Positions 17,091 through 39,716 of a stretch of 43,285 nucleotides of DNA are shown one piece after another (the stretch's first letter is position 1; each line of letters starts with the position of its first letter). The position numbers were made by a program, and so were the translations under genes. The DNA comes from Gemmatimonadales bacterium. Lineage in GTDB: Bacteria; Gemmatimonadota; Gemmatimonadetes; Gemmatimonadales; GWC2-71-9. Under the pieces are notes generated by a model. The model was not told where the DNA came from. It searched no databases and saw nothing but the letters and a program-made list of their open reading frames with translations. The stretch is taken from assembly GCA_036443495.1 (NCBI GenBank), contig JAZFYL010000006.1, positions 1 to 43,285 of the forward strand, written 5' to 3'.

Positions 17091-17113
17091 GGGCACTCCC
17101 CGGGGAGAACCCC

Positions 17114-17157
17114 ACAAAAAAGAGACACCCTGCGCTGGGGGCGAACAGGGTGTCTCT
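17114..17157 (-). terminator. Rho-independent terminator between tRNA-Asp and rsmH
   Basis: The minus-strand RNA reads AGAGACACCCUG-UUCGCCCCCAGCG-CAGGGUGUCUCU-UUUUUGU. That is a perfect 12-bp stem (17121-17132 / 17146-17157), a 13-nt loop and a U-tract (17116-17120). Confidence 0.75.
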
Positions 17158-17168
17158 CGAAGTTGCAA

Positions 17169-20525: not shown

Positions 20526-21392
20526 CTACTCGGAGCGCGGGACGTCACCTCCTGAATCGACCAGCTCCAACAACTCCTGGCAGCGTTTCCCCCACGGGTT
20601 GAAACGATTGGCCTTGAAGCCGTCGGCCCAGGTCTGGCGCGCGGCCTCTTTCTCCCCAGAGAACCATTGGGCGCGCCCCAATTCGAAGTATGCTTCGATC
20701 AGGTTTGGTCCAAGATCGAGCGTCTTGGTGAGAAACGACAGCGCGTCCTCGTACATTTCGCGCTCGAGATACACCAGGCCCAGGTAGAAATGGGCGTAGA
20801 GTGTGGCCTTGCGGTCGTTGGCCAGACGAATCGCTTTCGAAAGGTGTTCGATCGCTTCGCCGAAGATGCGCTTCTTGAGACAGATATATCCCACATTGAT
20901 GCGGGCCAGGGAGTTCGCCGGCTCTTTCATGAGCACCTTGGAGAAAGTACCCAGGGCGTCGTCGTAGTCTTCGTTGAGCATTTGCGCCCACCCCAACAAG
21001 GAGCGCGCATGTGAATCGTCGGGGGCCAGGGCCAGGGCCTTGTTCAGAGCCTCAATGGCGCTGAGGTGATCGCCCAACGATATCAAGCTCCAACCCTTCT
21101 CGATGTAGGTCGACGCCCCGAGGTGGTCCGCGTGGACCGCGGGGCGAGCGCCGGTAAACTGGGGAGCCTGCGCGCCATCGGCAGCACCGGAGCGTTGTTT
21201 GTACCGCTCGACCAGCCCGCGGATGCCCTCTTTGACGTCCGCCAATTCGGACAACGCCCCATCGACCTCCTTGAAGTAGGCGATGATTTCCCGTTTCAAG
21301 GCTTCACGTTCGGCTTGCGAATCGGCCTGCTCCAGGCGCCGTTCGATGTCCGCGTGTCTGCCTCGCAGGGCGGCCAACCACGTTTCGGTCAT
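20526..21392 (-). CDS. Protein with an N-terminal coiled coil and C-terminal TPR repeats
   Basis: N-terminal heptad-like 'RRLEQADSQAEREALKREIIAYFKEVDGALSELADVKE'. TPR units such as 'SAIEALNKALALAPDDSHARSLLGWAQ' and 'EAIEHLSKAIRLAND'. Lies 5 nt downstream of cheW. Confidence 0.75.
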   Translation of the reverse strand: MTETWLAALRGRHADIERRLEQADSQAEREALKREIIAYFKEVDGALSELADVKEGIRGLVERYKQRSGAADGAQAPQFTGARPAVHADHLGASTYIEKGWSLISLGDHLSAIEALNKALALAPDDSHARSLLGWAQMLNEDYDDALGTFSKVLMKEPANSLARINVGYICLKKRIFGEAIEHLSKAIRLANDRKATLYAHFYLGLVYLEREMYEDALSFLTKTLDLGPNLIEAYFELGRAQWFSGEKEAARQTWADGFKANRFNPWGKRCQELLELVDSGGDVPRSE

Positions 21393-21397
21393 GTAAG

Positions 21398-21880
21398 CTA
21401 CGCCTCGCTGCCGGCCTTGGCCCCGGCATCGGTCAATTGCAGTCGTTCGGTTGAACTGAACAGCTTGCCCGCGTTGAGCATGACGACCGTATCCGAGTTG
21501 TGGGACAGTAGCCCGGCGATGTACTTCGCCGCGAGTCCACGCACCATTGCCGGCGGTGCGGTGATGGCACCGGCATCCAGACGATGGACCTCCTGCACAT
21601 GATCCACCAACACGCCTACCGGGTGGTCGTCGATGCGCAAGATGATCAGCCGGGTTTCGTCCCCGATGTCCGGCGTGAAACCGAGTCGTTTGCGGAGATC
21701 AACGACCGGGGCCATGCCGTCGTCGTACGGTATTACCCCTTCCAGAAACTCCGCCGCGTTAGGCAGCGAGGTTGGAGTCGCATACCGGAGAATGCGGTCC
21801 ACCTGGCCGATCTCAAACGCGAAGAGCTGGTCGCCGACGCTGAAGATGACTACCTGAATCTCGTCGCCGCTCGTCGTCAT
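21398..21880 (-). CDS. cheW: CheW-like coupling protein
   Basis: 'QVVIFSVGDQLFAFEIGQVDRILRY', 'LEGVIPYDDGMAPVVDLRKRLG' and 'RLIILRIDDHPVGVLVDHVQEV' fit the CheW-domain pattern. Confidence 0.85.
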   Translation of the reverse strand: MTTSGDEIQVVIFSVGDQLFAFEIGQVDRILRYATPTSLPNAAEFLEGVIPYDDGMAPVVDLRKRLGFTPDIGDETRLIILRIDDHPVGVLVDHVQEVHRLDAGAITAPPAMVRGLAAKYIAGLLSHNSDTVVMLNAGKLFSSTERLQLTDAGAKAGSEA

Positions 21881-22302
21881 GATGCCATTCCGCGCTCGAT
21901 GATGGTCGGAGCCAGGGCCGCAAGGTCGATGATTGGAATGAACAGACCGTCCCGCTGCACCACGCCCACCGCTCCGGGCATGTCGTGGTCATCGGGTAGC
22001 GGGCGTACGGCATCGGTCGTGACTTCCACCGCGTGATCCACTTCCAAACAGATGCGCCGGCCATCCAAGGTTGCGACCACCGCCATCTCACCGAGGGCGC
22101 TGGGACAACCGCCACCATCCAGCGCCGCCCCCAAGTGAAAGACGGGAACCAGTCTCCCCCGTACCGGGATGACCCCACGCAAGGCGGGCGCGGTCGAAGG
22201 TACCGCGAAGGGCACTACCATATCGATAACTTCGATGAGCGGGTCCATGGCCAGCCCCACGTGCTTTTCTCCCGCCTGCACCAGCAGGAATCGGCTGTCC
22301 AT
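21877..22302 (-). CDS. Divergent CheW-like protein
   Basis: 'FLLVQAGEKHVGLAMDPLIEV', 'LRGVIPVRGRLVPVFHLGAAL', 'ICLEVDHAVEV', 'LFIPIIDLAAL'. 4-nt overlap with the downstream cheW. Confidence 0.7.
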   Translation of the reverse strand: MDSRFLLVQAGEKHVGLAMDPLIEVIDMVVPFAVPSTAPALRGVIPVRGRLVPVFHLGAALDGGGCPSALGEMAVVATLDGRRICLEVDHAVEVTTDAVRPLPDDHDMPGAVGVVQRDGLFIPIIDLAALAPTIIERGMAS

Positions 22303-22305
22303 CGG

Positions 22306-23385
22306 TCAACGTCCCGGCAGCGAGGCGAGCCAGGCGCTGGCCTCCGCGCCCAGGCGGTCGATGCCTAAGACCTCGTCTACTGCCCCAATCTCCACGGCCG
22401 CTTTCGGCATGCCGTAAATCGTCGCGCTCTCCTTGCTCTGAGCCATCCCGTACCCCCCAGCTCGGTGAATGGCCGCCAACCCCTCCGCACCATCCCGGCC
22501 CAATCCGGTCAGCACCATCCCCAAGGCCCGGTCGCCAAACACCGCCGCGACCGAATGAAAGAGCGGATCGGCCGCCGGGCGCACCCCCCATACCGTCGGC
22601 TCCTGGTTCAACACCAAGTGGGGACCGTCAGGGCCAAGTTCCACCTGCATATGATAATCGCCCGGGGCGATGTACGCCGTGTCGGTCGCGAGTGGCACCC
22701 GTTCACCACCTTCGACGACCTTGAGTCCGCTCTGTCCGTCAAGTCGCTCGGCCAGGCTCCTGGTAAACTTGGGCGGCATATGCTGGGCGATCACCACTGC
22801 GGCATCGTGCCCTGAAGAAATCCGGGGCAGGACTTCGGCCAACGCTCGCGGACCACCGGTGGACGCTGCGATTGCGAGGCAGCAGGTCGGCCGGCCGGGA
22901 ACGGCGAACAGCGGCTCAATGGCACCCACCGCGGGGCGCTGTGGCCGGGCGAGTACCGGGAGCCGATTCAGCTCCGCCGTTGCCGCGGCTTCGAGTGCCG
23001 CCAAGAGTCGGTCCGCGAACCTGTTCCTCGCGATCTCGGTGCGGTCCTCTTCCTTGGCGACCAGTTCGACCGCGCCTAGTTCGAGGGCACGGATGGCTGC
23101 GGCCGTCCCCTGCCCTGCGTAAGCACTCACCACGATGACCGGGCGGGGCAATTCCGACATGATGTAACCGATGGCCCCAAGGCCATCCAGTTCGGGCATC
23201 TCCAGATCCATGGTAATGAGATCCGGCATGAACTTGTGCAGTTTCTTGAGGGCGTCGGCTCCGTTTCGAGCGGTCGCGACGACCCGGAACCGGCCCGACG
23301 CGTCAATCACGGAACTCAGCAGCCGGCGGAAAAAGGGGCTGTCGTCGACCACCAGGACGGTGGGGCGGTCAGATACGCTCAACAC
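22306..23385 (-). CDS. cheB: Chemotaxis methylesterase/response regulator CheB
   Basis: REC domain ('[14 protein letters not shown]', '[13 protein letters not shown]') plus a methylesterase domain ('[11 protein letters not shown]', '[11 protein letters not shown]', '[11 protein letters not shown]'). Confidence 0.93.
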
Positions 23386-23854
23386 CGGTACGGACCGAGC
23401 TCACCTCCACCACACCGGAATCGACGTGAAGCCGGACCGTACGACCGAAGTCACCGCCCACGGCTTCGCCCACGATCGGTATCCGATGGGCTCCCAGTGT
23501 TTTTTGGGTCGATATGATGTTGCGTTCGCCCATCTGGATCGCCCCCGAAGCCAGCATGGCGAACATCGACGCTCCCCCAATCAGTCGGGCAGTAATCCGT
23601 CTAGGGCTGGCGCCCAACTCCGCCATTTCTTCCAGCATGGCCGGGATCGCGGTCTGGGGGAACTTTCGAAGGTTGGCGCCGCGCCTGGCCAGCGACGGGG
23701 TCGGGAGGAGAATGTGGGCCAGACCACCAACCTGAATTTTGGGATCGTGCAGGACCACCGCGACGCAGCTACCGAGCCCATAGGTCACCAGGACATCGCC
23801 GGCACATCCAACTCGGAAGTCGGCGACTTTGACCACCACGTCGTCGGCGTCCAT
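23369..23854 (-). CDS. cheD: Chemoreceptor glutamine deamidase CheD
   Basis: Starts at the ATG at 23854 ([10 protein letters not shown]), a 1-nt overlap with the cheR stop. '[14 protein letters not shown]', 'GGLAHILLP', 'LIGGASMF'. Confidence 0.88.
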
Positions 23855-24672
23855 CAAGCCACCTGGTAGATACGCTCGCGAACATCGAGCAGAGTGAAGC
23901 GCTTCTGGGCTTCGCCGAACATCGTTTCGACTTTTCCCAACACGAGAGCGCCATCGTCGGACAGGACATCCGCGAACACGGTGAACAACTGGAGCTGCGT
24001 GGGGCGATCGAAATAGATGACGACGTTGCGACACACGATCAGATCGTACGATGAGTGGAGCGGAGGATCCCGGATGAGATCGAGCTGCCGCACGTGGACC
24101 AGCGACCGGAGCCGCGGGACGACCTCATACTCTTCCCCGATGGGGCGACAATACTCGTCGCGGTGAAGCGCGGGGGCTTCATCGAACGCCGAGGCGGGAT
24201 ACCGGCCCGCTTCGGCGCGCGCCAGGCACTCGCGGTCGATGTCCGTCGCATCGATATGGACCCGATCCAGCCAGTGGCGACGGCCAAGCCGCTCCGACTG
24301 GTCGGCGAACAACATGGCCAGGGTGTGCGGCTCTTCGCCGGAGGCGCAGCCGGCGCTCCACACGCGGACATGCCCCTCACGTGCCTGGAACAAGGCCGGG
24401 AGGATGGTATCCGCCAGGCTCTCCCAAGTCTCCCGATTGCGATAGAACCGGGTCACGTTGATGGTCAGGGTGTCCTTGAGATGCTGGTACTCGTCCGGCC
24501 TTTCTCCGAGCAGCGACTGATACGCCTTGTAGGTGTGGACCCCGCAGGCGCGCATCCGGACGGCAATCCTCCGGCGCAGGCACTTTTGTTTGTATGCGTG
24601 CAACGCCAGGCCGGCAGCCTGGGAGATGGTCTGCGTCAACGCCTGGAAGCTGGCTTCATCGCCGGCGTTCAT
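23854..24672 (-). CDS. cheR: Chemotaxis protein methyltransferase CheR
   Basis: 'TINVTRFYRN', SAM-binding 'VWSAGCASGEEPHTLAMLF', 'YDLIVCRNVVIYFD'. Confidence 0.92.
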   Translation of the reverse strand: MNAGDEASFQALTQTISQAAGLALHAYKQKCLRRRIAVRMRACGVHTYKAYQSLLGERPDEYQHLKDTLTINVTRFYRNRETWESLADTILPALFQAREGHVRVWSAGCASGEEPHTLAMLFADQSERLGRRHWLDRVHIDATDIDRECLARAEAGRYPASAFDEAPALHRDEYCRPIGEEYEVVPRLRSLVHVRQLDLIRDPPLHSSYDLIVCRNVVIYFDRPTQLQLFTVFADVLSDDGALVLGKVETMFGEAQKRFTLLDVRERIYQVA

Positions 24673-26285
24673 CCGGCATTTTCCAGCATGTCGAGGTTGG
24701 CCCGAGCGAGTTGGTGTCCCGCGTTCAGCGTTGTCGCCCGCTTCCAGTATCCCTGGGCCCGCTCCCGATCGTTCCGTTTATAGGCCAGGTTCCCCAGTTT
24801 GAAGTACAGGTCGTCCCCCAAATCGGGGCTCAGTTTTGCCGCCCGCTCATACGAGGAATGGGCTTCATCGTAGTTCCCCGCACGATAGAACAGGTCGCCG
24901 AGGTTCTTGGAGATCTGCGGGATCGTGGGTTCCTGTTCGAAGGCTTTCCGCAACACCTGCTGGGCCTCGGGTACCGATCCTGCAACTTCGAGGAGCACGG
25001 CGAAGTTGTTGGCCAACACCGCCTGTTCCGGGTGGGCCTTCACCGCTTCGGCTGCGAGATCGCGGGCTGCATCGTGGTCCCCTTCCCCGGTGTGGGCCAG
25101 CGTCATGGCCCAATACCAGACGGCCGGCGGCGTACGATCGCCGAGCAGCTCCCTCGCCCTGGCCAGCCGCCCCGCGGCCACGCTGAAATCGTCTTGCTTG
25201 AGGGCCACGACCCCCCATCCGATCATGGCTCGGGGATCATCACGGGCCCGGCCGACGGCGTCGGCAAAGGTCGCTTCGGCCTCCTCCAGCCGGCCCATAC
25301 GCTCAAGGGCATATCCGAGATTGTGGAGTGCGCCCGGGCGGGGACCGCCCCGCTCCACCGCAAGCTCGAAGTGTTTGACTGCTTCCTCCCAGCGGGCCTG
25401 CTTGAGTGCGATGAGCCCCAGGTAGAAGGGTGCGCTGCCTTCCGACGGTCGCAATTCCGCAACCCGGCGGAACTCCCGCAGCCCCTCTTCCAACATGTCC
25501 GTCTTGTAGAACGCGATACCGAGGTTGCGGTGTTCTTCTACTCGCGCCTCGTTCACCCGGGGCGCCTCGCGAGTACTCGATGTTCCCACCCGCTGTACGA
25601 ACCCCGCGGTGATCAACCCGTAGAGCGCCTTGCCCAAATCGAACTCGGCGAGTCCGCTCTCCTCGAGCAGTTGGTCCACGTCGCGCTCGCCGTCGAGGTG
25701 ACAGAGGATCTGCTTCTGTTCCGGCGAAAGAGCGACTTCAGCCGAATCCAGGCGTTCCTGATCGACCGCGAAGATCAGGTCGAACGAGGGGACCTTCTTC
25801 TCGATGAGGCTCCACTCGTCGACCCGGCGGGCGCCCTCCAGCAACAGCGATTGCGGGTTGATCGCCACGACCATATCCTGCTCTGGTTGGACGCCAGCTT
25901 CGAAGTTGAAGGTCCCGGCGTGCCAGGTGAACAGGAAATACACGGCTTCTTCGATTTGCAGCCGTATGTATTCCTCCAACTCGGAGCGCTCGATCACCCC
26001 TTGCTCAACGAGAATCTCTCCGAGTTTCTTGTCGCGGAAGTTGCCCTGCAGCTCGAGGGCCTCGGTTTGCTGCTCGGTGGTGATGCGGCCGCTGGCGACC
26101 AGGATATCGCCCAGCCGATCGCGACGGTTCACGATCGAGGCGTAGCTGATGAGCCCCTCATCGAAGTAGATGTATCCGAAGTTCTGGCGGTCGGCCACCG
26201 CCAGGCAGCCGGTCTTCTTCCCCAAGGACAGTAGCTGAATGACGTCGGGGAGGCTCGCTTCCTTCAGGCTGCCTTTGATCGCCAT
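24669..26285 (-). CDS. PATAN/DUF4388-like N-terminal domain fused to TPR repeats (paralog 1)
   Basis: Start taken at the ATG at 26285 ([30 protein letters not shown]...YFDEG), which matches the DUF4388/PATAN signature as I remember it. It includes a helical insert ('RLGDILVASGRITTEQQTEALE...KLGEILVEQGVIERSELEEYI'). The C-terminal half is TPR ('EGLREFRRVAELRPSEGSAPFYLGLIAL' and others). Confidence 0.8.
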   Translation of the reverse strand: MAIKGSLKEASLPDVIQLLSLGKKTGCLAVADRQNFGYIYFDEGLISYASIVNRRDRLGDILVASGRITTEQQTEALELQGNFRDKKLGEILVEQGVIERSELEEYIRLQIEEAVYFLFTWHAGTFNFEAGVQPEQDMVVAINPQSLLLEGARRVDEWSLIEKKVPSFDLIFAVDQERLDSAEVALSPEQKQILCHLDGERDVDQLLEESGLAEFDLGKALYGLITAGFVQRVGTSSTREAPRVNEARVEEHRNLGIAFYKTDMLEEGLREFRRVAELRPSEGSAPFYLGLIALKQARWEEAVKHFELAVERGGPRPGALHNLGYALERMGRLEEAEATFADAVGRARDDPRAMIGWGVVALKQDDFSVAAGRLARARELLGDRTPPAVWYWAMTLAHTGEGDHDAARDLAAEAVKAHPEQAVLANNFAVLLEVAGSVPEAQQVLRKAFEQEPTIPQISKNLGDLFYRAGNYDEAHSSYERAAKLSPDLGDDLYFKLGNLAYKRNDRERAQGYWKRATTLNAGHQLARANLDMLENAG

Positions 26286-28315
26286 CAGCGCCACTCCTCG
26301 ATAACCCGACCGCCCGCGTCGGGCCATGTCCAGATCATCTTCTCGCGACTTCGCGGTCCACCGGCAGTCGGTGCCACGATACCGCTGGACCGTACCCGTC
26401 GGCGGTCACTGGGGCGTTTGCTGGGCGGACCCTCGAGGATCTCCCGAGCGAGCGCTGCCGAGGGCACGAGTTCCTGGACCTCGGCGGCGGTGAGCACGCG
26501 CTGCACCAAACCATGCAGGCTGCGCACTGATTCCACCGGACGGCTCGCCAGGTAGGCCGACAACTCGGCATCCTCGAGATCGAGTTTGGCCCGCAACAGG
26601 CGGGCGGCCACTTCCTGGCGAATTTCCCGTTCCGGAGGCGGCAACTCGACCACCAGTCCTCCCTCGAGTCTGGTCAGGAGCCGCGGCTCCACCCCAGTGA
26701 GCTCCGCCAGCGGCACGGTGGAGGTAAAGACCATTTGCCGCTCATCGGCCAGGAACTTGTTGAACAGGATGAACAGCATCTCCTGGGTGCGGTCTTTGTT
26801 AGCCACGAGGTGGACATCGTCGAGCAGAAAGGCACTGGCGTTTTCGTAGCGGGCCCGCCACTGGGTGACGCGCTCGTTGTCGACGGCATCAATCAGTTCG
26901 GCGATGAAATCGTGCGCATCGAGGCAGGCGACCCTGCTGCCCGCCTCCTTGGCCAGCTCGTTGCCGATACCGTGAAGGAGGTGCGTTTTCCCCCGACCGC
27001 TGCCACCGATGATGACCAGGGGGTTGTAGCGAACCCCTGGCTCCTCCGTCACGGCCAGGCCGCTCCGGAGGGCGACCCGATTGCCGCCGCTTTCGAAGAG
27101 TTCTTCCAATTTCCACAGGGGTGACGGGCCTGGCGGAGGCGTCGTCCCCGCCCTCGCCTCGGCGACGAGCCCCTCGGCAACCGCAACCTTATCAGGGTCA
27201 CGGAAGACCGCCGACCCGGCCACAGCGGATTCCATCTCCTCCGCCTCGTGGGCAAGGGCCTGGAGCCGGCCAACGTCGGTCTCAAAGGCCTCCAGCACGG
27301 ATTCGAGATCATCGGAGAGTTCGCCCTCGAGCAACAGTTCGAGCCGGGTGGTACGGTACCCCTCCCCTTCCCAGCGCATGATGGCCGCCGCCACCTTGGA
27401 TCGCCACGACTCGACCTGGTCCGAGACAGTGGCAACTACCTCAGACAGGAAGCTCCCGAATTCGTCGCCGAGGTTCGTTTCTTCGTCCCCCTCTTCGGCA
27501 GTCGCGACCGCCGGCGCTTCCGTCGCGCCCGACTCTTGCTGAGTTTCGTCCCCGACAGGCAACGTCGTCGCACGATCGATCGCTTGGGGGACCCCCGGTA
27601 TGTTCTTCAGGAAGGCGACCGCCTCGATAGCGCCGATGGGCGTATCGGAGACCGCCTGCTGCGCAATGAGGCGGTTTAGCGCGCCGATCAACTCACGCAC
27701 GTTGGTGAACTGCAACCCGGCCACCGCGTCGACGACATCCTTGTCGAATGTCACGTCCCGCTCCTGAGCCCGCCGTGCCAGAATGGCCGCACGGGTCTCG
27801 TAGTCCGGGGTGGCGATGTCCACGACGAGCCCACCGGCGAAGCGCCGAATCAACCGGTCGTCCAGGGCTTCGATGTCCACCGGGGGACGGTCGCTGGTCA
27901 GAACGATCTGGCGCTGCTCGGTTTGCATCACGTCGGTGAGGCGGATGAGTTCCGCCTGCATCTCCCGGCGGTGCGCCAGAAACTGCACGTCGTCCAACAG
28001 CAATAAGTCTGCGTCGCCCACGTGCCGGCGGTAGGCCTCCCCCTGCCCAGCCGCCACAGCGGTATGGAACGCCTCGACGAAATCATCCAGGGTGAGATAC
28101 TCGACCCGAAGATTCGAGTTGATTTCCAGCGCCCGGTGTCCGATCGCCATGAGCAGATGGGTTTTGCCCAGGCCCGGATCGGCGTAGACGAACAGGGGGT
28201 TGTAGCCCGTGCCGGGAGACTCGGCCACACTGCGGGCGGCGGTCACGGCCAGCCGATTCGCGGCACCCACGACCATACTGTCGAACCTGAAGTACGGATG
28301 GAGGTGATCGCTCAC
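26285..28315 (-). CDS. Tandem double DnaA-type AAA+ ATPase with no DnaA domain I and no DNA-binding domain IV
   Basis: Module 1: '[15 protein letters not shown]', Walker A '[10 protein letters not shown]', Walker B 'LLLLDDVQF', 'VLTSDRPP', '[19 protein letters not shown]', '[12 protein letters not shown]'. Module 2: '[13 protein letters not shown]', '[11 protein letters not shown]', 'FLLDDVHLV', 'VFTSTVP', '[19 protein letters not shown]', '[12 protein letters not shown]'. An acidic linker of about 190 aa separates them. The GTG start overlaps the mglA stop (GTGA). Confidence 0.85.
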
Positions 28316-28914
28316 GATAGACTTTCTCCAGACGCCAGCCTCTTGAGTACCAGCTCCGACACGCCTTTGAGGGTCTCGAACACCCCGGCTCCGTGCAGGC
28401 AGTCGGCGGAGTAGCTGCGAACCGCTCGAAAGTTCAGGGCCTCATCCAGCTCGTCGTGGCTCATGACCAGATCCGCGGGCAGGTCCTGCTTATTGTACTG
28501 ATACACCAACGGCAACGTCCGAATATCGATTCCGTGATCCAGGAGATTCTCCTGCAGATTCTGGAGGCTCTCCAGATTTTCGTCGAACCGACGGGCCTGG
28601 CTATCCGCCACGAAGACCACGCCGTCGGCCCCCTGCAATACGAGCTTGCGGGTTGCGTTGTAATAGACTTGCCCGGGAACCGTGTAGAGTTGGAAGCGGG
28701 TCGTGAAGCCCGAGATGCTTCCGAGGTCGATCGGCAGGAAATCGAAGAACAACGTGCGATCGGATTGCGTGGCCAAGGATACCATCTTGCCGCGGCGGTC
28801 TTCCGGCACCCGGCCGAAAATGTACTGCAAGTTGCTCGTCTTGCCCGACCGGCCCGGACCGTAGTATACGATCTTGCAGGTGATTTCCCTCGAGGTGAAG
28901 TTGACGAGTGACAT
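28312..28914 (-). CDS. mglA: Ras-like small GTPase MglA
   Basis: Near-colinear with Myxococcus MglA as I recall it: '[25 protein letters not shown]', '[10 protein letters not shown]', '[10 protein letters not shown]', '[10 protein letters not shown]', 'QYNKQDLP', 'GVFETLK'. Confidence 0.93.
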
Positions 28915-28919
28915 TGCGG

Positions 28920-29381
28920 CTACCGTCCGAATAGCGAGCGCAGGCTGGAATGCAGTTCGTGCTCGAAGTCCTGGGCCAACACTGCCCCCCTCGGCTCATC
29001 CGCCGGAGCGGCGGCCACCAATTCCGCTATCATGCGATCGAAAAATAGCCGTACCACCCCGAACGTCGTGTCGCGCCCGAACACCACCAGTCCAATCCAC
29101 CGCCCGACGGGCGTGTCAAAACCGGAGAGGAACATTCCCTGGTCCATCCCCTGGTGAGACATCGCCTGAAAGCGAGACACACCCAGCACGCGCGCAAGCT
29201 CTTCCGTCGAGGATATGATGCCGGCCCCAAGAGCCGCGGCCGACATGACATCGAACGCCCGGGTAAACCCATGCTGGGCGACCACCTGCCCCGAACTCGT
29301 CATGAGCAGAGTGAGACGGGCTTCCGACTCGGTCAGAAAGGTCGCGAGTGGACGCTCCACCCAAGGTTCCAGGGCGCGCAT
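28920..29381 (-). CDS. mglB: MglB-like Roadblock/LC7 protein (probable MglA GAP)
   Basis: Starts at the ATG at 29381 ([12 protein letters not shown]). '[16 protein letters not shown]...[24 protein letters not shown]...[13 protein letters not shown]...[26 protein letters not shown]' parallels MglB. Lies 5 nt upstream of mglA. Confidence 0.8.
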
Positions 29382-29731
29382 TACCCCAACCGTCCCACCG
29401 CCTGGAGCATCTCGATTCGCGTGAGTCCGGCATTCACCTGACCATCTCCCACGGCCACCAGCAGCAACTCCGGGCCTGCGGGAACCACCAAAAGTGCTCC
29501 TGCGGAGGCCTGGAGGTGGAAAAAGGTCGGGGCGGCATAGCCTGTCGCATCGATTGCCGTCCCCAGTCGCCGGGTCAGGGACGCCGCCAGCGCGGCGATG
29601 GCGTCGCCGGGGACACCCTCCATGAGAGACTCCGCCACGATGAGGCCGTCCTCGGCAGAGACGACCATGGCGCCCGATATGCCTCTGAGGCGGGTGATCG
29701 GCTCGAGGGTAGCTTCGTACCCGCCGTTCAT
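29381..29731 (-). CDS. Roadblock/LC7-domain protein (second paralog)
   Basis: Starts at the ATG at 29731 (MNGGYEATLEPITRLRGISGAMVVSAEDGLIVAES...DAIAALAASL...LLVVPAGPELLLVAVGDGQVNAGLTRIEM), a typical Roadblock pattern. The ATGA overlaps the upstream gene, and there is a 1-nt overlap with mglB. Confidence 0.65.
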   Translation of the reverse strand: MNGGYEATLEPITRLRGISGAMVVSAEDGLIVAESLMEGVPGDAIAALAASLTRRLGTAIDATGYAAPTFFHLQASAGALLVVPAGPELLLVAVGDGQVNAGLTRIEMLQAVGRLG

Positions 29732-30585
29732 GTGAGTGACTCCATCCACTGATTCGCGGCCTCTGAGGCACGCACGCTCAGGGCGGCCAATCGCCCCAGC
29801 GGCACGCTTGACGCCCGTGCCACCAGGAGGATGGTATCGGCAGTCGGCGCCACCAGATGAAAGTTCCCGTCCGGGGCTTGGACCGTCAGGCTCTCCCAAG
29901 CTCCCATTTCGAGCAGTTTGGTAGCGCGGGAGGCCTCACGGGACACACCGGCGAGGTAGGCGGCGACGCGGTCAGCGACGTCGAGTCCGTCAGGCGATTG
30001 CAGTCCACCCCCTAGCCGCCGGCCCTGGGCATCCACCAGCAGGAGTCCGTCTTCCGCCCCCTCGAATCCCACGAAGACGGCCGGCATCTCGAGTTCGGCC
30101 TCTGTCTCCGCCGCGTCCGGAACCGGTTCAGCGACCGGCTCTTGAGCCAGCACGGGTGGGGCGGGGCTCTCCCCTGCCGCCTCACCCAGCCCTTCCCGGA
30201 CGCGGGCGATGGCTGCAGCGATCCCTTCGTCGTCCGGCATGACCTCCCGGGCCTGTTCGAGGTGTTCCTGGGCTTTCGGCAGTTCTCCGGCGACGAAGTA
30301 AAGGAAACCGATCCCTTTGTGGGCACCCGCGTGCCCAGGGTCGAGGCGGAGTGCAATGCCCCACTCGTCGAAGGCAACCTCGAAGTCACCGCAGTCACCG
30401 AGAATCCTGGCGTAGAGGTCGTGGGCATCGGCCAGATCCGGATAGCGGGACAATCCCGCCACGGCCACCTTCTGCGCCGAGGCCAACTGCCTGCGACGGC
30501 GCAGCGCCTCTCCCAAGGGCAGAAACACCAAGCTGGTCGGATCGGCCGCCAGCTGGGATGTCATGACTCGGATGTCTTCAGTCAT
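29728..30585 (-). CDS. TPR (N-terminal) fused to a Roadblock/LC7-like domain (C-terminal)
   Basis: TPR-like 'AHDLYARILGDCGDFEVAFDEWGIALRLDPGHAGAHKGIGFLYFVAGELPKAQEHLEQA'. A Pro/Ala/Glu linker follows. C-terminal 'DGLLLVDAQGRRLGG...VADRVAAYLAGVSREASRATKLLEMGAWESLTVQAPDGNFHLVAP..DTILLVARASSVPLGRL' is Roadblock-like. Confidence 0.65.
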   Translation of the reverse strand: MTEDIRVMTSQLAADPTSLVFLPLGEALRRRRQLASAQKVAVAGLSRYPDLADAHDLYARILGDCGDFEVAFDEWGIALRLDPGHAGAHKGIGFLYFVAGELPKAQEHLEQAREVMPDDEGIAAAIARVREGLGEAAGESPAPPVLAQEPVAEPVPDAAETEAELEMPAVFVGFEGAEDGLLLVDAQGRRLGGGLQSPDGLDVADRVAAYLAGVSREASRATKLLEMGAWESLTVQAPDGNFHLVAPTADTILLVARASSVPLGRLAALSVRASEAANQWMESLT

Positions 30586-31726
30586 GCCGTTCTTGCATTG
30601 CCTCTTCCAGCACCAGAGCCGCTTCGAGGTAGCGTGTTACAGCCTCCGTGTGGCCCTTCTCGTGTGGATTGCGCCCGGGTAACTCCAGCCACTGCTGCCA
30701 CACCAACCCTGCCTCCGCGAATTCCCCGGCCCCCACCAGGGCCACACCCAGCAGGCGATAGCCCATCGCCAACTCGGAGTCCAACTCCACGGCATCCCGC
30801 AGAGTCTCCACCGCTTCGGCAAACCGGTTGGCTGCCACTAGCACCCGACCCAAGATCAGGTAGGCGACGCTGTCATCAGGATAGCCCGCGACCGCATCGC
30901 GAGCAGTGTCCTCGGCCGCCCCCACATCAGCGACCGATAGGTGATCCTCGGTTCGCGCCACCAAGACCGCCAATTCTCGATCTTCGGCCTGCGTCACGGC
31001 GGTCTTGGGATCCTCAATGACGATAATACCGGCCGAGGCCAACCCGAAGAGAACCTTGGCGACCTCGAATTCCGAGCGTCCCAATTGGTCGGCGATCTCT
31101 CGAACATCGGCCTCACCGCCGACCGCGGACAGGAGGGCCCACTCGTCCGGTAGCAAATCAATTACGGCGGGCCCATTGCCATCACCGGCATTGAGCCTCG
31201 GTACGACCCCGAGGTGTGGAATCTTGGACTCGAATCGGCTCCACTCGTCGATTCGCCTCGCAGCCTCCATGAGCAGCGACTCGGTGGGGATCCGATAGTG
31301 TGCCTCTGCGGGAGACTGCCCCGGCTCACTTTCCTCGAAGGAGAAATAGCCTTCCGACCAACTCATGAGCTCGAAGATGACTTCTTCGACTTGATCACTG
31401 ATCTGTCGGTCGAGCTCTTTCCGTGATATCGCCCCGATTTCCACCAACAACTCGCCGAGGCGCTGGCCATCGCGACTCGCCTGCATGTCGACAGCGCGGT
31501 TGACGTCGTCGGCACTGACCTTACCAGACCTGATAAGCAGCGATCCGAGCGGATGGGGGTTGCTCTTGATTTCCGCTCCGACCACGGCGCCACCCTCGAA
31601 GTAGACCGTGCCGTCGTTCTGCCGGAGGTCGGAGGTCACGACGAGGACACCAGTCTTCCGCCCCAGGTCGAGTAACTGGAACACATCGTGAATGTGCAGT
31701 TCCTTCAGCGGGCCTTCGATCGTCAC
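30578..31726 (-). CDS. PATAN/DUF4388-like N-terminal domain fused to TPR repeats (paralog 2)
   Basis: 'MTIEGPLKELHIHDVFQLLDLGRKTGVLVV...VYFEGG' plus a helical insert ('PLGSLLIRSGKVSADDVNRAVDMQ...RLGELLVEIGAISRKELDRQISDQVEEV'). C-terminal TPR units ('SVAYLILGRVLVAANRFAEAVETLRDAVELDSE'). Confidence 0.8.
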   Translation of the reverse strand: MTIEGPLKELHIHDVFQLLDLGRKTGVLVVTSDLRQNDGTVYFEGGAVVGAEIKSNPHPLGSLLIRSGKVSADDVNRAVDMQASRDGQRLGELLVEIGAISRKELDRQISDQVEEVIFELMSWSEGYFSFEESEPGQSPAEAHYRIPTESLLMEAARRIDEWSRFESKIPHLGVVPRLNAGDGNGPAVIDLLPDEWALLSAVGGEADVREIADQLGRSEFEVAKVLFGLASAGIIVIEDPKTAVTQAEDRELAVLVARTEDHLSVADVGAAEDTARDAVAGYPDDSVAYLILGRVLVAANRFAEAVETLRDAVELDSELAMGYRLLGVALVGAGEFAEAGLVWQQWLELPGRNPHEKGHTEAVTRYLEAALVLEEAMQERHD

Positions 31727-31729
31727 GAC

Positions 31730-34414
31730 TTACCCGGACGTTTCAAGGAAGATGTGAGCCAGATCCTTGGCCGACCGTAGCTGCGCTCTGGCACGCTGGG
31801 CGTATTCGCTCGCGGGATCCAGCATGATGACTCGCTGCCAGGCACCCATGGCATCGTCGTATTCCTTGGCCGTCAGCTTGATCGTCCCGATGTGGAACAA
31901 CGCCGCCAAGTGGTCGGGCTCGAACCGCAGGATGCGCTCGAGTGCATGGCGCGCCTCGGCTTTCCTGCCGTCCTCGATCAGTACTTCCGCCAAGAGCATC
32001 AGGGCATCGAATTCGTAGGGATCCAGCGCCAGCCAATCGACCAGCAGGTGCACCGCGGCACGACTCGATTCCTGCTCTTTCAGCAAGCGGGCAAGCGCCA
32101 GGGTCGCTTCGACGTAGGTCGGCAGAAGGTTCAGCGCCTTCTCGTAGGCCAGCCGAGCACCGGTGTAGTTCTGCCGAGCCTGTTCCAACCCACCCAGCTC
32201 GAACCAGACCTGCACCAGCCCGGAATCGAGCTGCAGTGCCGCCTGGTAGGCCTCCAGCGCGCCATCAAAGTCGCCCAGATGGGTCGCCACCTTGGCCTGC
32301 AATTGAGAGAGATCCGGTCTACCCGGGGCCAGCAGCTGAGCCTGCTTGAGATGGTCCAGGGCCGGCACCGGTTGTCCCAGCGCCAGCCTGGCCTGGGCAC
32401 ACGCCACGAGGCCCTCGACATCATCGCGGGAACGCCGGGCCAGCTCTTCCACGAGGCCGCCGGCTTCCTCGGGACGCCCCAGGGCCAGTAACGCGCGGAC
32501 CTCGCCGCGCAGCGCCTCGGTCTCCTCGGGATCATGCTCGCGGCTGCTGCGGTAGCGTTCCAAGGCCTCGCCGTAGAACCCGCGCTTCATGAAAATGTCG
32601 CCCAGCAGAACATTGGCCTTGACGCGTGAGGCCCCTCGCGCAACCGCTCGATTCAATTCCGCCGTTGCCAGCTCCAGCAAGCCCTTGTCGATGTAGTCTC
32701 GGGCCAGAACGTACGGCGCGTTGACATCGGCGACGGCATCCTCCGGCTCGGGTTCCGGAACGAGTTCGGCAAAGATGTCGTCCAGCACACCTTCGTCGAG
32801 TGTGAAGGCATCCCCGATCTCCTCGCCAGCGACATCGCCCGACAGCTCGGGCACGATGCTGATCGTCGGGTCTTCGTACTGCAGGTCGATTGTGAGACTG
32901 AATTTCTGGGGCACGTAGTAGGCTTCGAGTTCCAGAGCACGCTTGGTTTCGCGCAGGGCACCGTCGAAGTCTCCCAGCTGGCTCAGGGTGAAGCTCAGGT
33001 TGTAGTGGGCCGGGGCATGGTTTGGATCCGCCTCCACCGAGCGGGCGAAGGCGTTCTTGGCGTCGGAGAAGCGCTTCAACTCCATCAGCACCATTCCCAC
33101 TCCGTTCCAGGCGATCGCGTTAGCCGGGGTATCGGCGAGGATCTGCCTGTAGGCCTCCAGCGCCGGCTGAAAACGTTTGTGCTGGAAGAGTTCCAACGCC
33201 AAGTTGAGCTTGGCCGCCACCACCTGACGGTTGCTCTCGACTGCCGTCCGAAACGCCTTCAACGCGTCCTCGGGGTCCTCCTGGTCGGCCAGCAGCACCC
33301 CGAGATTGTTCCAGGCCAAGGCGTACCGGGAATCGTGAGAGATGGCATTCTCGTAAGACACTCGGGCCAGTTCCCGCTGTCCGGCCTGGTGCAAACAGAC
33401 GCCCCGTTCGTTCCACAACTTGGGAGAATCTTCGAATTCACGGACCAGCGAATCGTAAAGGTTGAGCGCCGCACTGAAGTCGTGCCGGAGCAGATCCACC
33501 TCGGCAATGGCCTCCAGGACCAGGCGCCTCTCTTCGCCACTGTCCAGGGCGAGCCGGTACTCCCGGAGAGCCTCGGCGAAGTATCCCTTCTGCCGGAATG
33601 CGAGGCCGAGGTTGTAGTGCGCCAAGGCCCTTCCTTCAGCGATCTGCGGCCGTTTGTGGTCCCCCTCTTTGTCTTCCGGCCGTCTGTCGGTGCCTGAGGT
33701 GAGCGTCAGGTTGGCCTGTGCCCGGGCCAAGGTGGGATTCAGTTGCACGGCACGTCGGGTGGCCGCCCGGGCATCTTCGTGGAGGCCCATGTCGCCATAG
33801 ACGAAAGCCACCAGGTAGTGCGCGTCGGCGTATTCGGGGTTGAGCTTGATTGCCGCCTTCAGTTCATCCAACGCCTGCTCGTTCAGGCCTCGATTATAGA
33901 GGGCTTCGCCATGGTAGAACCGCGCCAGGGAACTCTGGGGCTCGATCCGGCACGCTTCCTCAAACCAATCCGAAGCGGCCTCGACCTGGCCGCGCGCCTT
34001 TTCAGCCATCCCCAGTTGAATGATGGTCGGCGTATCGTGGGGCTGGCGGGACAACAAAGCATCGAACTCGGCGATGGCTTCGTCATAGTGACCCAGTGAG
34101 GCGTAGGCCCGGCCGAGTTTCCACCGGGCCTCATGGTCCTCCGGTTGCTCCCGCAGTTTTTCCTGGAGGCCCGCTACGAGGGAATCGTAATACCCGGACG
34201 AGGTATAGGCGGCCTCCAGGTTGTCCTGGGCCACCTGCATCTTGGGGTCCAATTCGAGGGCACGCGTGAACTCGGCAATGGCCTCGGGGATGAGTCGCTT
34301 CTGATAGTAGAGAACGCCCAGGTTGTTGTGGGCACCGGCGTCGGATGGATCGATACGATCGGCAAAGGAGCGGAGGACCGCTAAATCGCGTTCCGAGATC
34401 GCCGAGACAGCCAT
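31730..34414 (-). CDS. Large (894 aa) all-TPR protein
   Basis: Starts at the ATG at 34414 (MAVSAISERDLAVL), 4 nt after the cheC stop. Contains many consecutive canonical TPR units, for example 'AHNNLGVLYYQKRLIPEAIAEFTRALELDPK' and 'ALAWNNLGVLLADQEDPEDALKAFRTAVESN'. Confidence 0.8.
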   Translation of the reverse strand: MAVSAISERDLAVLRSFADRIDPSDAGAHNNLGVLYYQKRLIPEAIAEFTRALELDPKMQVAQDNLEAAYTSSGYYDSLVAGLQEKLREQPEDHEARWKLGRAYASLGHYDEAIAEFDALLSRQPHDTPTIIQLGMAEKARGQVEAASDWFEEACRIEPQSSLARFYHGEALYNRGLNEQALDELKAAIKLNPEYADAHYLVAFVYGDMGLHEDARAATRRAVQLNPTLARAQANLTLTSGTDRRPEDKEGDHKRPQIAEGRALAHYNLGLAFRQKGYFAEALREYRLALDSGEERRLVLEAIAEVDLLRHDFSAALNLYDSLVREFEDSPKLWNERGVCLHQAGQRELARVSYENAISHDSRYALAWNNLGVLLADQEDPEDALKAFRTAVESNRQVVAAKLNLALELFQHKRFQPALEAYRQILADTPANAIAWNGVGMVLMELKRFSDAKNAFARSVEADPNHAPAHYNLSFTLSQLGDFDGALRETKRALELEAYYVPQKFSLTIDLQYEDPTISIVPELSGDVAGEEIGDAFTLDEGVLDDIFAELVPEPEPEDAVADVNAPYVLARDYIDKGLLELATAELNRAVARGASRVKANVLLGDIFMKRGFYGEALERYRSSREHDPEETEALRGEVRALLALGRPEEAGGLVEELARRSRDDVEGLVACAQARLALGQPVPALDHLKQAQLLAPGRPDLSQLQAKVATHLGDFDGALEAYQAALQLDSGLVQVWFELGGLEQARQNYTGARLAYEKALNLLPTYVEATLALARLLKEQESSRAAVHLLVDWLALDPYEFDALMLLAEVLIEDGRKAEARHALERILRFEPDHLAALFHIGTIKLTAKEYDDAMGAWQRVIMLDPASEYAQRARAQLRSAKDLAHIFLETSG

Positions 34415-35049: not shown

Positions 35050-36930
35050 CTAGACCAAGGCCGCGGCGTCGAGAATGAGCGCCGGTGTGCCATCCGCCAG
35101 GATAGTAGCCCCGCTGAAATAGGGTGGCATTCCCCGGGGCGGATCGAACGGCTCCACCACAATTTCCATCTGTCCCAGCAGGGCGTCAACAAGAAGCGCG
35201 GAGCGCCGCTCCCCGACCTCCAGGATCACACACGGCCGGCGGTCCGGCACATGATTGCCCTTCTGGCCCACCACGGTCCGTAGATCGGCGGTGCTCAGGA
35301 CCTCGTCCCGCAAGACGACCGAATCCCGGTCATGGACCTCGGCGCGGGTCTGCTCGTTGTACTCGACCGTTTCGGCCACGAAGGCCATCGGTAAGACGTA
35401 CCGCTCATCGCCCGCCTGGGCCAGCAATGCCCTAAAGATAACGAGCGTCAGGGGCAGCCGGAGAACGAAAGTCGTGCCTTGCCCCAACTCGGACTGAATA
35501 GCCACGGAGCCGCCCAGGCCGCGGAGCTTCGTCAGCACGACGTCGATACCCACGCCACGCCCCGACACACTGGTCACCGCCTTGGCAGTGCTGAACCCGG
35601 AACGGCCGAGCACCTGGAGCAGGAGGTCGTCGTCCAATGCTTCGACGTCGTCGGGCACCGCTCCGGCATCCCGTGCCTTGGCCAAAACAGCCCCCCGGTC
35701 GATGCCCCGACCGTCGTCCTCGATCCGGAATACAACGCTGTCACGCTCGCGCATACAGCTGATGGTCAACCGCCCCTCTGCCGGTTTGCCTGCCGCGGCA
35801 CGTTCCTCACTCGACTCGATGCCGTGATCGACAGCGTTTCGCAACAGGTGAAGGACGGGATCGCCGATCTCATCCAGCAGGGAACGGTCGACCTCGATGT
35901 CGCCACCCTCCACGGTCAGGGTCACGCGCTTGCCCAGCTCCCTGGCGAGATCACGCACCGCCCGCGGGAACCGGTCGAACACCTGCCAGACCGGAGTCAT
36001 CCTGGCACCGATGACCTCGGTCTGAATGTCTGTGACCAGACGGTTGATCCGGGTACTCAGACCGGCGATTTCGCTTTCGGGATCCTTGGCCGTGAGTTCG
36101 ATCAACCGATTCCTGGCGACCACCAATTCGCCGACGTGGTTCATCAGCAGGTCCAGGCGCCGCCGATCGATACGGATCATGTTGTGGGCGCGCCGAACGG
36201 CCTCCTCGCCGGCGGTGGGCCCTCGGCCCCGGGCGTCGTCACCGATGACGACTTGGTCGACATCGCCAGCCGATCGAATGGCCTCCTCCACCGCACTGTC
36301 GGGCCGGGTGGTCTCCAGCCAAAAAGAAATCGTCCCGGCAAACCCCTCGTGCTCGAGGGTCTCCCTGGATGGCTCCAGGTCGTCGACTATGCCCAGTTTC
36401 TCGACCTGGGCCAGGACGATCATGGCCCGGACCCCGGGCATGGCGGCGGCCCCATCGATGGTGACCCGCACGGGTCGGCTCTTGGCGCTGCGACTCCGTT
36501 TGCGATCTGGTGGGCCACCCGGCGATGCCGGTAGGGGCATCTCGGCGGTCCCGGGAGCCGGCACGATGGCATCGAGTCGCTGCCCCACGTCGCTGAAGTC
36601 GAGGGACTCGTCGTTCCCCGCAGCGGCCGGTTCTACGCCCCCATCCAGGCCGTCAACCGCTTCGGTCAGGATATCCACCAGGGCGGTGTTTGGCGGCAGC
36701 GCCCCACTCCGCACCTGCTCGAGCACGTTCTCCGCGCGGTGGGCCAAGTCGGTGATGTGGGCGTACCCCATCATCGCGGCCATACTCTTGATGGTGTGCA
36801 TGGCCCGGAACAAGGCGTTTAGGGCATCCGGGTCGGCTGGATTCCGTTCTAGTTGAGCCAGATGCTGGTTGCAGGTCCCGAGATGTTCCCGGCTTTCACT
36901 GAGGAAGAGTGCTGCGTACCGGGCGTCCAT
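35050..36930 (-). CDS. cheA: Chemotaxis histidine kinase CheA
   Basis: Hpt 'LFRAMHTIKSMAAMMG'. Dimerisation region 'IRIDRRRLDLLMNHVGELVVARNRL'. HATPase 'LLRNAVDHGIE', 'DDGRGID', 'SGRGVGIDVV'. C-terminal CheW-like 'ALLAQAGDERYVLPMAFV'. Confidence 0.93.
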   Translation of the reverse strand: MDARYAALFLSESREHLGTCNQHLAQLERNPADPDALNALFRAMHTIKSMAAMMGYAHITDLAHRAENVLEQVRSGALPPNTALVDILTEAVDGLDGGVEPAAAGNDESLDFSDVGQRLDAIVPAPGTAEMPLPASPGGPPDRKRSRSAKSRPVRVTIDGAAAMPGVRAMIVLAQVEKLGIVDDLEPSRETLEHEGFAGTISFWLETTRPDSAVEEAIRSAGDVDQVVIGDDARGRGPTAGEEAVRRAHNMIRIDRRRLDLLMNHVGELVVARNRLIELTAKDPESEIAGLSTRINRLVTDIQTEVIGARMTPVWQVFDRFPRAVRDLARELGKRVTLTVEGGDIEVDRSLLDEIGDPVLHLLRNAVDHGIESSEERAAAGKPAEGRLTISCMRERDSVVFRIEDDGRGIDRGAVLAKARDAGAVPDDVEALDDDLLLQVLGRSGFSTAKAVTSVSGRGVGIDVVLTKLRGLGGSVAIQSELGQGTTFVLRLPLTLVIFRALLAQAGDERYVLPMAFVAETVEYNEQTRAEVHDRDSVVLRDEVLSTADLRTVVGQKGNHVPDRRPCVILEVGERRSALLVDALLGQMEIVVEPFDPPRGMPPYFSGATILADGTPALILDAAALV

Positions 36931-36934
36931 GGAG

Positions 36935-37297
36935 TTATCCGAGCACGCGCTGGACGGCCTCGAGGACTCGGGACGGCTGGAAGGGCTTGACGACGAAGTC
37001 CTTGGCGCCGGCTTGAATGGCCTCCACGACGAGGGCCTGCTGCCCCATCGCGCTGCACATGAGGACCTTGGCCTCGGGATCCTTTTGGCAGATCTCGCGT
37101 ACCGCCTCGATGCCTCCCATATCGGGCATCACGATGTCCATGGTCACGAGGTCGGGCTTGAGTTGATCGTAGCGTTCAACCGCTTCCACGCCGGTTTCGG
37201 CCTCGCCGATGATTTCGAATCCCGCTTGGGTGAGGATGTCGCTGATCATGGTTCGCATGAAGATGGCATCATCGCACACGAGCACGGTGTGACTCAC
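36935..37297 (-). CDS. cheY: Single-domain response regulator CheY
   Basis: 'VLVCDDAIFMR', 'LVTMDIVMPDMGG', 'VLMCSAMG', 'DFVVKPF'. GTG start with GGAGG 7 nt upstream. Confidence 0.92.
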   Translation of the reverse strand: MSHTVLVCDDAIFMRTMISDILTQAGFEIIGEAETGVEAVERYDQLKPDLVTMDIVMPDMGGIEAVREICQKDPEAKVLMCSAMGQQALVVEAIQAGAKDFVVKPFQPSRVLEAVQRVLG

Positions 37298-38786: not shown

Positions 38787-38803
38787 GGCTCGGTCGGCCT
38801 GTG

Positions 38804-39680: not shown

Positions 39681-39716
39681 ACGTTCATCCGTTGGTGGGG
39701 TCCGCTAGGGACCTCG

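Follow-up and report, generated by a model that had tools for sequence, protein, structure and literature searches.

The 43,285-nt stretch of DNA from a marine-sediment Gemmatimonadales bacterium analysed here (contig JAZFYL010000006.1 of assembly GCA_036443495.1, hereafter the window) carries, at 28312-30585 on the minus strand, a gene for the small GTPase MglA preceded by genes for three different Roadblock/LC7 proteins: a tetratricopeptide repeat (TPR)-Roadblock fusion, a minimal Roadblock protein and MglB. Translational coupling, joint conservation and purifying selection mark the four genes, which are nested in a set of chemotaxis (che) genes. The set is not a chance assembly, because its order and junctions recur in about 80 species-level genomes with low ratios of nonsynonymous to synonymous substitution (dN/dS). 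We propose, as a reading with about an even chance of being right, that these genes would form the core of a Gemmatimonadota-wide GTPase switch within a che operon. In this switch MglB would be the GTPase-activating protein (GAP) of MglA, and the pair of extra Roadblock proteins would be a scaffold or regulator linking MglA to TPR and PATAN proteins and to CheA/CheY.

To our knowledge, the route from a chemosensory signal to the MglA switch has been worked out only in Myxococcus, where the connectors RomR, FrzX, FrzZ, MglC and RomY are scattered over the genome and largely lineage-specific. Here, a complete che pathway, MglA, MglB and candidate connectors lie in one predicted operon that is kept intact across the phylum. 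The candidate Che-to-GTPase connectors thereby form a short, defined list, comprising the two extra Roadblocks, three TPR-containing proteins (two of them PATAN-TPR proteins) and a tandem DnaA-like ATPase.

The four genes and their products

In the order of transcription, the genes are the following:

29728-30585, minus strand: TPR-Roadblock fusion gene, 285 aa
29381-29731, minus strand: minimal Roadblock/LC7 gene, 116 aa
28920-29381, minus strand: mglB, 153 aa
28312-28914, minus strand: mglA, 200 aa

The first-pass annotation of the window, made from its letters, had described these genes as back to back with overlaps of 1-4 nt or a 5-nt gap, and the same coordinates and junctions were read here. 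The fusion and 116-aa genes overlap by 4 nt in an ATGA, the 116-aa gene and mglB overlap by 1 nt in a TAATG, and 5 nt separate mglB from mglA. On the outer sides, the upstream PATAN gene shares 8 nt with the start of the fusion gene, and the mglA stop shares a GTGA with the downstream AAA+ gene. Open reading frames (ORFs) of 172 and 283 aa are listed for the two middle genes, as upstream extensions in GC-rich sequence. The shorter 116- and 153-aa gene models are preferred because of the lengths of the orthologues (111-121 aa for the minimal Roadblock; mostly 151-158 aa, with a median of 156, for MglB) and the overlapping starts that they share. The four protein identities given by the first-pass annotation were right, being borne out by the PDB, Pfam, profile and Foldseek matches described below.

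The 200-aa protein, a small single-domain GTPase, matches Myxococcus xanthus MglA (PDB 5ymx) over residues 1-196 (E = 2e-72) and Thermus thermophilus MglA over its full length (E = 2e-67). The motifs listed for it beforehand are all present: the P-loop GPGRSGKT at residues 19-26, the intrinsic Arg53 within SDRTLFFDF (DRTLFFDF in the annotation), the G3 motif TVPGQ (T78-V-P-G-Q82) in place of DxxGQ, with the catalytic Gln82, and NKQD at residues 141-144. An intrinsic arginine in G2 and a TVPGQ-type G3 are the criteria for Group-1 MglA proteins (PMC4316618), and the 200-aa protein is predicted to be a complete member of this group, with its own catalytic Arg53 and Gln82. It also retains L55, F56, F57 and F59, the hydrophobic beta2 residues through which MglA contacts MglB in the complex from Thermus (PMC3199381).

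The 153-aa protein is, on the following matches, taken to be a bona fide MglB. As a single sequence it matches MglB in the PDB (6h5b) with E = 6e-9, and a profile of 28 orthologues reaches M. xanthus MglB at E = 1.5e-14 and T. thermophilus MglB at E = 4e-9. The match to the NCBIfam MglB model (E = 3e-9) lies under the model cutoff. The Pfam Robl_LC7 family is matched by 24 of the 28 orthologues, with the window copy scoring 18.4 bits, under the gathering cutoff of 23. The 20 C-terminal residues are among the most conserved of the protein (motif VLAxDFExEL..SL..LFGR), and we read them as the putative MglB C-terminal helix. The gap between mglB and mglA measures 2-5 nt in 78 of 79 related loci, which places MglB within four genes of mglA.

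The remaining two proteins make the Roadblock set richer than the classical mglBA pair, as the first-pass annotation had suggested. The annotation had made its reading depend on the assignment of two products, that of 29381-29731 and the C-terminus of that of 29728-30585, to the Roadblock/LC7 fold, and both are Roadblock folds. The 116-aa protein scores 36.7 bits against Pfam Robl_LC7 (PF03259), over the 23-bit gathering cutoff, and its family profile matches a Robl_LC7 domain protein (PDB 7f8m) at E = 2e-11, dynein roadblock at 7e-5 and MglB at 1e-3. It is nearer to generic and dynein-type Roadblocks than to MglB; a literature search on PDB entry 7F8M found nothing relevant. The 285-aa protein is divided into three parts:

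30172-30585, minus strand: N-terminal TPR domain, aa 1-138 (Pfam TPR, AlphaFold2, Foldseek TPR matches)
30049-30171, minus strand: Pro/Ala/Glu-rich linker, about aa 139-179 (alignment, AlphaFold2)
29728-30048, minus strand: C-terminal Roadblock/MglB-like domain, about aa 180-285 (profiles, AlphaFold2, Foldseek)

The Pfam TPR matches cover roughly residues 24-128, and the TPR domain is strongly conserved (FLPLGEAL, AFDEW, HxGxxKGxGFLY). The AlphaFold2 model, with a mean predicted local distance difference test score (pLDDT) of 88, shows eight helices over residues 3-138 and falls below a pLDDT of 50 at residues 139-165. The linker varies in length, from about 40 residues in the window to more than 100 low-complexity residues in the divergent loci L082, L083 and L088, where the proteins reach 338-410 aa. 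For the C-terminal domain, the window copy scores 19.4 bits against Robl_LC7 (E = 9e-4), under the Pfam cutoff, and 43 of the 45 orthologues match this family at E <= 0.01, the best of them at 1e-8. The best match of the domain profile is an MglB, that of T. thermophilus (1j3w, E = 4e-5), and Foldseek aligns the domain model with M. xanthus MglB (6hjm) at E = 1.3e-5 and a template modelling (TM) score of 0.73. The modelled topology is beta-beta-alpha-beta-beta-beta plus a long C-terminal helix; the N-terminal alpha1 helix of the canonical alpha-beta-beta-alpha-beta-beta-beta core is not modelled by AlphaFold2, the domain starting at a strand at residues 180-185, with residues 166-179 as coil.

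MglB contacts MglA in the Thermus complex mainly through its alpha2 helices, and the A68R/A72R double mutant of T. thermophilus MglB has a 10-fold lower affinity for MglA and is described as unable to stimulate its GTPase (PMC3199381). The fusion carries arginines at both equivalent positions: R216 (R, K, Q or H in orthologues) aligns with Thermus A68, and R220, which is invariant in 45 orthologues and kept in all four divergent loci examined (L082, L083, L087 and L088), aligns with A72. The fusion would contact MglA otherwise than MglB does, and a canonical MglB-like GAP role is unlikely for it because the invariant R220 stands at the Thermus A72 position, one of the two whose joint Arg substitution disables MglB. 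This domain can be regarded as a natural experiment, a Roadblock with arginines in the surface that MglB uses for MglA. In the MglB of the window, the same patch, as placed by sequence alignment only, has S57 at its first position (Ala in at least 90% of the orthologues) and E61, near-invariant and replaced by Ser in L082, at its second; the equivalent residues are A68/A72 in T. thermophilus and A64/G68 in M. xanthus. A salt bridge between E61 of MglB and R220 of the fusion across the alpha2 faces was considered and dropped: E61 is Ser in L082 while R220 is invariant, so that the two do not covary.

Comparisons among the three Roadblock domains indicate that they are ancient, very divergent paralogues. 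Pairwise BLAST is non-significant, and hhalign relates the 116-aa family to the fusion domain at E = 5e-5 and MglB to each of these two at 0.0035 and 0.025, all with low probabilities. A recent duplication of mglB as the source of the extra Roadblocks was ruled out on these BLAST and hhalign values. The fusion and the minimal Roadblock are the closest pair among the three and are always adjacent. Neither extra family, used as a profile against the PDB, matched a chain named MglC at E <= 10; MglC itself is less than 9% identical to MglB (bioRxiv 10.1101/2020.08.27.270058), so that a kinship with MglC could escape a sequence search.

Conservation and variants of the cluster

A scan of reference genomes with the 285-aa protein as a single query gave no match, and an alignment-based scan was then used, with one genome per species. 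This returned 215 loci, and the junction counts and the identities of MglA and CheY given here rest on the best 80 of them, nearly all from metagenome-assembled genomes (MAGs) of Gemmatimonadota. The fusion has hundreds of full-length relatives, and every organism-named one is annotated as Gemmatimonadales or Gemmatimonadetes. Against 1.84 billion representatives, the profile of its Roadblock domain matches no more than 306 clusters, and the domain nearly always forms the C-terminal part of proteins of 250-460 aa.

The four genes belong to an insert of eight, in the order ~894-aa TPR protein, PATAN-TPR protein, fusion, minimal Roadblock, MglB, MglA, tandem DnaA-like AAA+ protein and second PATAN-TPR protein. 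The insert is nested in che genes (CheW-CheY-CheA-CheC on one side, CheR-CheD-CheB-CheW-CheW-TPR on the other), giving an array of 18 genes, all on the minus strand. Intergenic gaps are no larger than about 50 nt and starts overlap stops at many junctions, for which reason the array would be one operon, judging by gene spacing alone. Scanning the cluster for promoters and terminators gave no promoter-like site, and the terminator-like hairpins that it did give are weak and lie within genes; a search for RNA sequencing runs containing the locus found none, its only matches being sediment and marine DNA metagenomes.

Searches by tblastn with all 18 window proteins recovered the same order and orientation in every locus that is long enough, across more than 80 Gemmatimonadota species, except in L014 and L017 (Gemmatimonadales), where the whole insert and CheD are kept and the genes for CheR, CheB and both downstream CheW proteins are missing. 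The junctions are conserved as well. The ATGA between the fusion and minimal Roadblock genes is found in 75 of 80 loci, the minimal Roadblock and mglB genes are joined at -4 or -1, the 8-nt overlap between the 382-aa PATAN gene and the fusion gene is kept across loci, and the GTGA (-4) overlap between mglA and the AAA+ gene is present in all 68 of 68. Pairwise dN/dS has medians of 0.13 (fusion), 0.11 (minimal Roadblock) and 0.08 (MglB), which are rough values at a dS of ~0.6-0.9. Across the 80 loci, MglA is 76-90% identical, and CheY, the most conserved protein of the array, 85-92%. The upstream housekeeping flank has the same genes in all related loci, which argues for a vertically inherited cluster and not for a mobile island.

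Divergent members of the fusion-domain family that can be placed in context stand in the same cluster, with the same housekeeping neighbours. MglB is found in ~84 of 86 loci examined; in the divergent loci L083 and L087 the genes for the fusion, the minimal Roadblock and MglA are retained, and mglB is missing between the minimal Roadblock and mglA. L087 is also without CheR, and no MglB-like sequence was found in its 15 kb. Because both loci keep the pair without MglB, the fusion/minimal-Roadblock pair is the constant element of the cluster. Such variants without MglB provide a second natural experiment.

Scans seeded with Gemmatimonadaceae-like sequences returned MAG loci only and no locus from a cultured Gemmatimonas. 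For Gemmatimonas aurantiaca, only 'MglB>MglA>' (GAU_1115) and 'PATAN>MglA>-PATAN>' (GAU_1409) have been listed (PMC4316618). Three contigs with the same cluster at typical identities are labelled Acidimicrobiia (L005), Rokubacteria (L041) and Myxococcales (L051); these odd labels are probably MAG binning errors.

A proposed switch and its alternatives

In the mechanism that we propose, a dimer of MglB would serve MglA as its GAP, in the way known from Thermus and Myxococcus. The two extra Roadblock proteins would work only as a pair, most probably as a heterodimer of their Roadblock domains. This pair would not be a canonical GAP and could instead be a scaffold or regulator of the MglA/MglB cycle. 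The conserved TPR arm of the fusion might tie the switch to the two PATAN-TPR proteins, the large TPR protein and the tandem DnaA-like ATPase, and through that assembly the flanking CheA/CheY pathway would control the nucleotide state or the location of MglA. The output would be a polar or motility machine. Type IV pili are the favoured candidate on account of the cyanobacterial PATAN domain, which occurs in che-like operons and, in Synechocystis, has the pilus motor proteins PilB1 and PilC as binding partners (bioRxiv 10.1101/2021.06.11.447907).

Several points weigh against this proposal. The heterodimer is suggested by adjacency and relatedness only. The near-invariant E61 of MglB sits where Myxococcus has Gly and Thermus has Ala, and because of this residue the MglB-MglA interface here may differ from that of the solved complexes. 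Moreover, MglB is dispensable within the cluster, as L083 and L087 illustrate, which would be just as compatible with a direct action of the fusion/Roadblock pair on MglA. Finally, the output could be flagellar rather than pilus-based, because the che genes look to be of the Thermotoga/Bacillus flagellar type (CheY, which matches T. maritima CheY at E = 9e-50, CheC and CheD).

Among the other explanations, the first gives a catalytic role to the heterodimer. The fusion and the minimal Roadblock might together be a direct regulator of MglA, either as its GAP or as its GEF (guanine nucleotide exchange factor), comparable with eukaryotic longin/Roadblock heterodimers, with the invariant alpha2 arginine contacting MglA and MglB being a second, partly redundant regulator. 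The retention of the pair and MglA in the two loci without MglB in the cluster is in line with this, as are the presence of R220 on the very face that contacts MglA in MglB and the best match of the fusion domain profile being an MglB. We consider this explanation unlikely, though, since a Group-1 MglA supplies its own Arg53 and Gln82 and has no need of an external arginine finger, and arginines at the alpha2 positions weaken MglB binding in Thermus. The fusion model also lacks the alpha1 helix, and the genomes of L083 and L087 may encode MglB outside the 12-15 kb covered.

A different function for the whole insert is conceivable if the che genes serve flagellar chemotaxis. The MglA/Roadblock/TPR/PATAN module would then position or partition receptor arrays or the flagellum at the pole, in the manner of ParC/ParP or FlhF/FlhG, and would not be a Frz-like reversal switch. 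By its composition, the che part would be of the Thermotoga/Bacillus flagellar type (F1-like): CheA has the domains Hpt-P2-dimerisation-HATPase-CheW and no receiver, the gene set CheA(P2)-CheW-CheY-CheB-CheR-CheC-CheD is all present, and the highly conserved CheY is very close to that of T. maritima. In addition, Gemmatimonas aurantiaca has been described as flagellated. This explanation is nevertheless rather improbable. Neither the window nor the flanks seen at any locus contain a flagellar gene, what is known of MglA and PATAN function relates to type IV pili and gliding, and we found no earlier case of MglA working on chemoreceptor arrays. It is highly improbable that the extra Roadblocks regulate the tandem DnaA-like AAA+ ATPase instead of MglA. 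The ATPase gene is always in the cluster and coupled to mglA by the GTGA overlap, both AAA+ modules retain Walker A and B, sensor and Arg-finger motifs, and the Roadblock superfamily has been proposed to include NTPase regulators (Koonin and Aravind 2000, as cited in PMC4316618). Against this, we found no known Roadblock protein acting on an AAA+ ATPase and no link between MglA and DnaA-like proteins in the literature, and the Roadblock genes occupy the place upstream of mglA that is classic for mglB.

A further reading is more speculative. The pair could be a bacterial counterpart of the heterodimeric Roadblock/longin GTPase regulators, with the invariant alpha2 arginine acting on MglA itself. 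Joined by the tandem DnaA-like AAA+ ATPase and by the PATAN-TPR proteins as c-di-GMP sensors, the pair might be part of a hitherto unknown machine in which phosphorylation of CheY is turned into a GTPase polarity switch, in place of RomR/RomX/FrzX of Myxococcus. This reading is very doubtful at present. In eukaryotes, different Roadblock-type domains heterodimerise into a small-GTPase platform in Ragulator/Rag and in the longin/Roadblock regulators; unlike in Ragulator/Rag, MglA has no Roadblock domain of its own, and only the fold is shared.

The module shares with the MglA-MglB systems of M. xanthus and T. thermophilus the Group-1 hallmarks, the position of mglB immediately upstream, the MglB C-terminal helix region and the hydrophobic beta2 residues of MglA. 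It differs from them in the two further Roadblocks before MglB and in the Glu of MglB at the equivalent of Myxococcus G68 and Thermus A72. It also differs from the Myxococcus pair in being embedded in a predicted che operon. The mglBA genes of Myxococcus lie away from frz and romR, and the link from Che to MglA is genetic there, with dispersed genes (PMC4316618). MglC is a Roadblock-fold protein without GAP activity, and RomY is a co-GAP (PMC7949163, PMC9481161). The extra Roadblocks would resemble them as accessory proteins modulating the MglA/MglB cycle, whereas their genes adjoin mglBA, one of them is fused to TPRs and no sequence similarity to MglC was detected. RomR, RomX and RomY of M. 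xanthus were not seen in the cluster, nor were a Frz-type FrzCD-like receptor, FrzZ or FrzX. The proposed logic, a Che-type pathway feeding a small-GTPase polarity switch, is that of Frz, although the CheA here has no fused receiver (as opposed to the CheA-CheY FrzE) and the che genes resemble the Thermotoga type and are physically linked with mglA in one putative operon.

Systems with an mglA:Roadblock ratio of 1:2 are known from Group 3 and a small Group-1 subset, with only one copy in the co-evolving MglB clade (Wuichet and Sogaard-Andersen 2014, PMC4316618). In those systems, as here, two or more Roadblock genes are coupled to a single mglA; the present ratio is instead 1:3, including a TPR fusion, in a fixed order and a che context. 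PATAN proteins also occur in the che-like operons of the cyanobacterial Tax/Pix systems, where PATAN is the output that binds PilB1/PilC; here, PATAN is fused to TPR and not to a receiver, and it is accompanied by MglA, Roadblocks and an AAA+ ATPase. PATAN genes near Group-1 mglA have been noted earlier (PMC4316618). In Bdellovibrio, the TPR protein Bd2492 binds MglA directly, in a hub with a c-di-GMP receptor (PMC3983030). This MglA-Bd2492-RomR-CdgA hub is alike in combining MglA with a TPR protein and a c-di-GMP receptor, and unlike in that Bdellovibrio has no MglB, the hub genes are not beside mglA and there is no Roadblock fusion. A literature search found no description of a 1:3 arrangement, a TPR-Roadblock fusion, an mglA inside a che operon or a DnaA-like partner. 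Multiple Roadblock genes beside one mglA are thus already known, and a 1:3 set wired into a che operon was not found described.

The other genes of the array and its surroundings

The other four genes of the insert are the following:

31730-34414, minus strand: large all-TPR protein, ~894 aa if the start is the ATG at 34414 (Pfam; the listed ORF reaches 34561)
30578-31726, minus strand: PATAN (DUF4388)-TPR protein 1, 382 aa (Pfam DUF4388, E = 2.6e-33)
26285-28315, minus strand: tandem DnaA-like AAA+ protein, 676 aa (GTG start overlapping the mglA stop in the GTGA)
24669-26285, minus strand: PATAN (DUF4388)-TPR protein 2, ~538 aa if the start is the ATG at 26285 (DUF4388, E = 4.5e-36; the listed ORF reaches 26327)

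The large TPR protein has generic TPR matches only in NCBIfam, and its orthologue in L001 has 897 aa. The DUF4388 scores of the two PATAN-TPR proteins, 115 and 124 bits, stand against a cutoff of 25. Both also exceed the cutoff of 38 bits for NF053729, an MshEN-type motif that binds cyclic di-GMP (c-di-GMP), with 39.7 bits for the 382-aa protein and 43.5 bits for the ~538-aa protein. The predicted motif consists of tandem RLGxxLLxxGxI...L...Q repeats, which in the 382-aa protein lie inside the PATAN insertion. The same protein shows weak winged-helix-like matches (TrmB, HVO_A0114) at residues 193-242.

The 676-aa protein is made up of two DnaA domain-III modules: it matches Pfam Bac_DnaA in two stretches (E = 6e-88), and its first module matches domain III of Bacillus subtilis DnaA (PDB 8bv3) at E = 8.5e-53. 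The DNA-binding domain IV of DnaA is absent from it by Pfam. The AlphaFold2 model has two AAA+ modules, with an acidic disordered stretch and a helical region (residues 285-388) between them; the tail is modelled with low confidence and yet has invariant Trp and Arg residues. A conserved motif of this C-terminal tail reads SGIV...SREKxxWxWP. Databases label the protein as 'DnaA/Hda family' or, often, as a chromosomal replication initiator. The latter annotation is probably wrong and the protein probably has nothing to do with replication, which flags a routinely mis-annotated 'DnaA' paralogue. Nothing else at the locus is as unexpected as the fixed coupling of the AAA+ gene to mglA; no paper linking MglA with DnaA-like proteins was found.

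The che genes, assigned by Pfam, and the TPR gene at the end of the downstream half are located as follows:

37349-37831, minus strand: CheW
36935-37297, minus strand: CheY
35050-36930, minus strand: CheA
stop at 34419, minus strand: CheC, about 206 aa
23854-24672, minus strand: CheR
23369-24034 (ORF), minus strand: CheD
22306-23385, minus strand: CheB
21877-22302, minus strand: second CheW
21398-21880, minus strand: third CheW
20526-21392, minus strand: TPR protein, 288 aa, end of the downstream che half

CheC matches the Thermotogales CheC model at E = 1.4e-54, under the model cutoff. The cluster contains no receptor gene and no dual-receiver gene, though CheR, CheB and CheD act on receptors.

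The upstream flank (37779-42860, minus strand) encodes an isoleucyl-tRNA synthetase, a DksA-type zinc-finger protein, signal peptidase II and a pseudouridine synthase. Further downstream (13908-17168, minus strand) are the start of a cell-division and cell-wall cluster (MraW and an FtsI-type penicillin-binding protein), a peptidase MA-family protein and a 663-aa TPR protein. Long plus-strand ORFs run antisense to real genes between 24000 and 34000, for example at 24594-26234 (546 aa), opposite a PATAN-TPR gene. Their low-complexity translations, rich in Arg, Pro and Gly, are typical artefacts of DNA with 64% GC.

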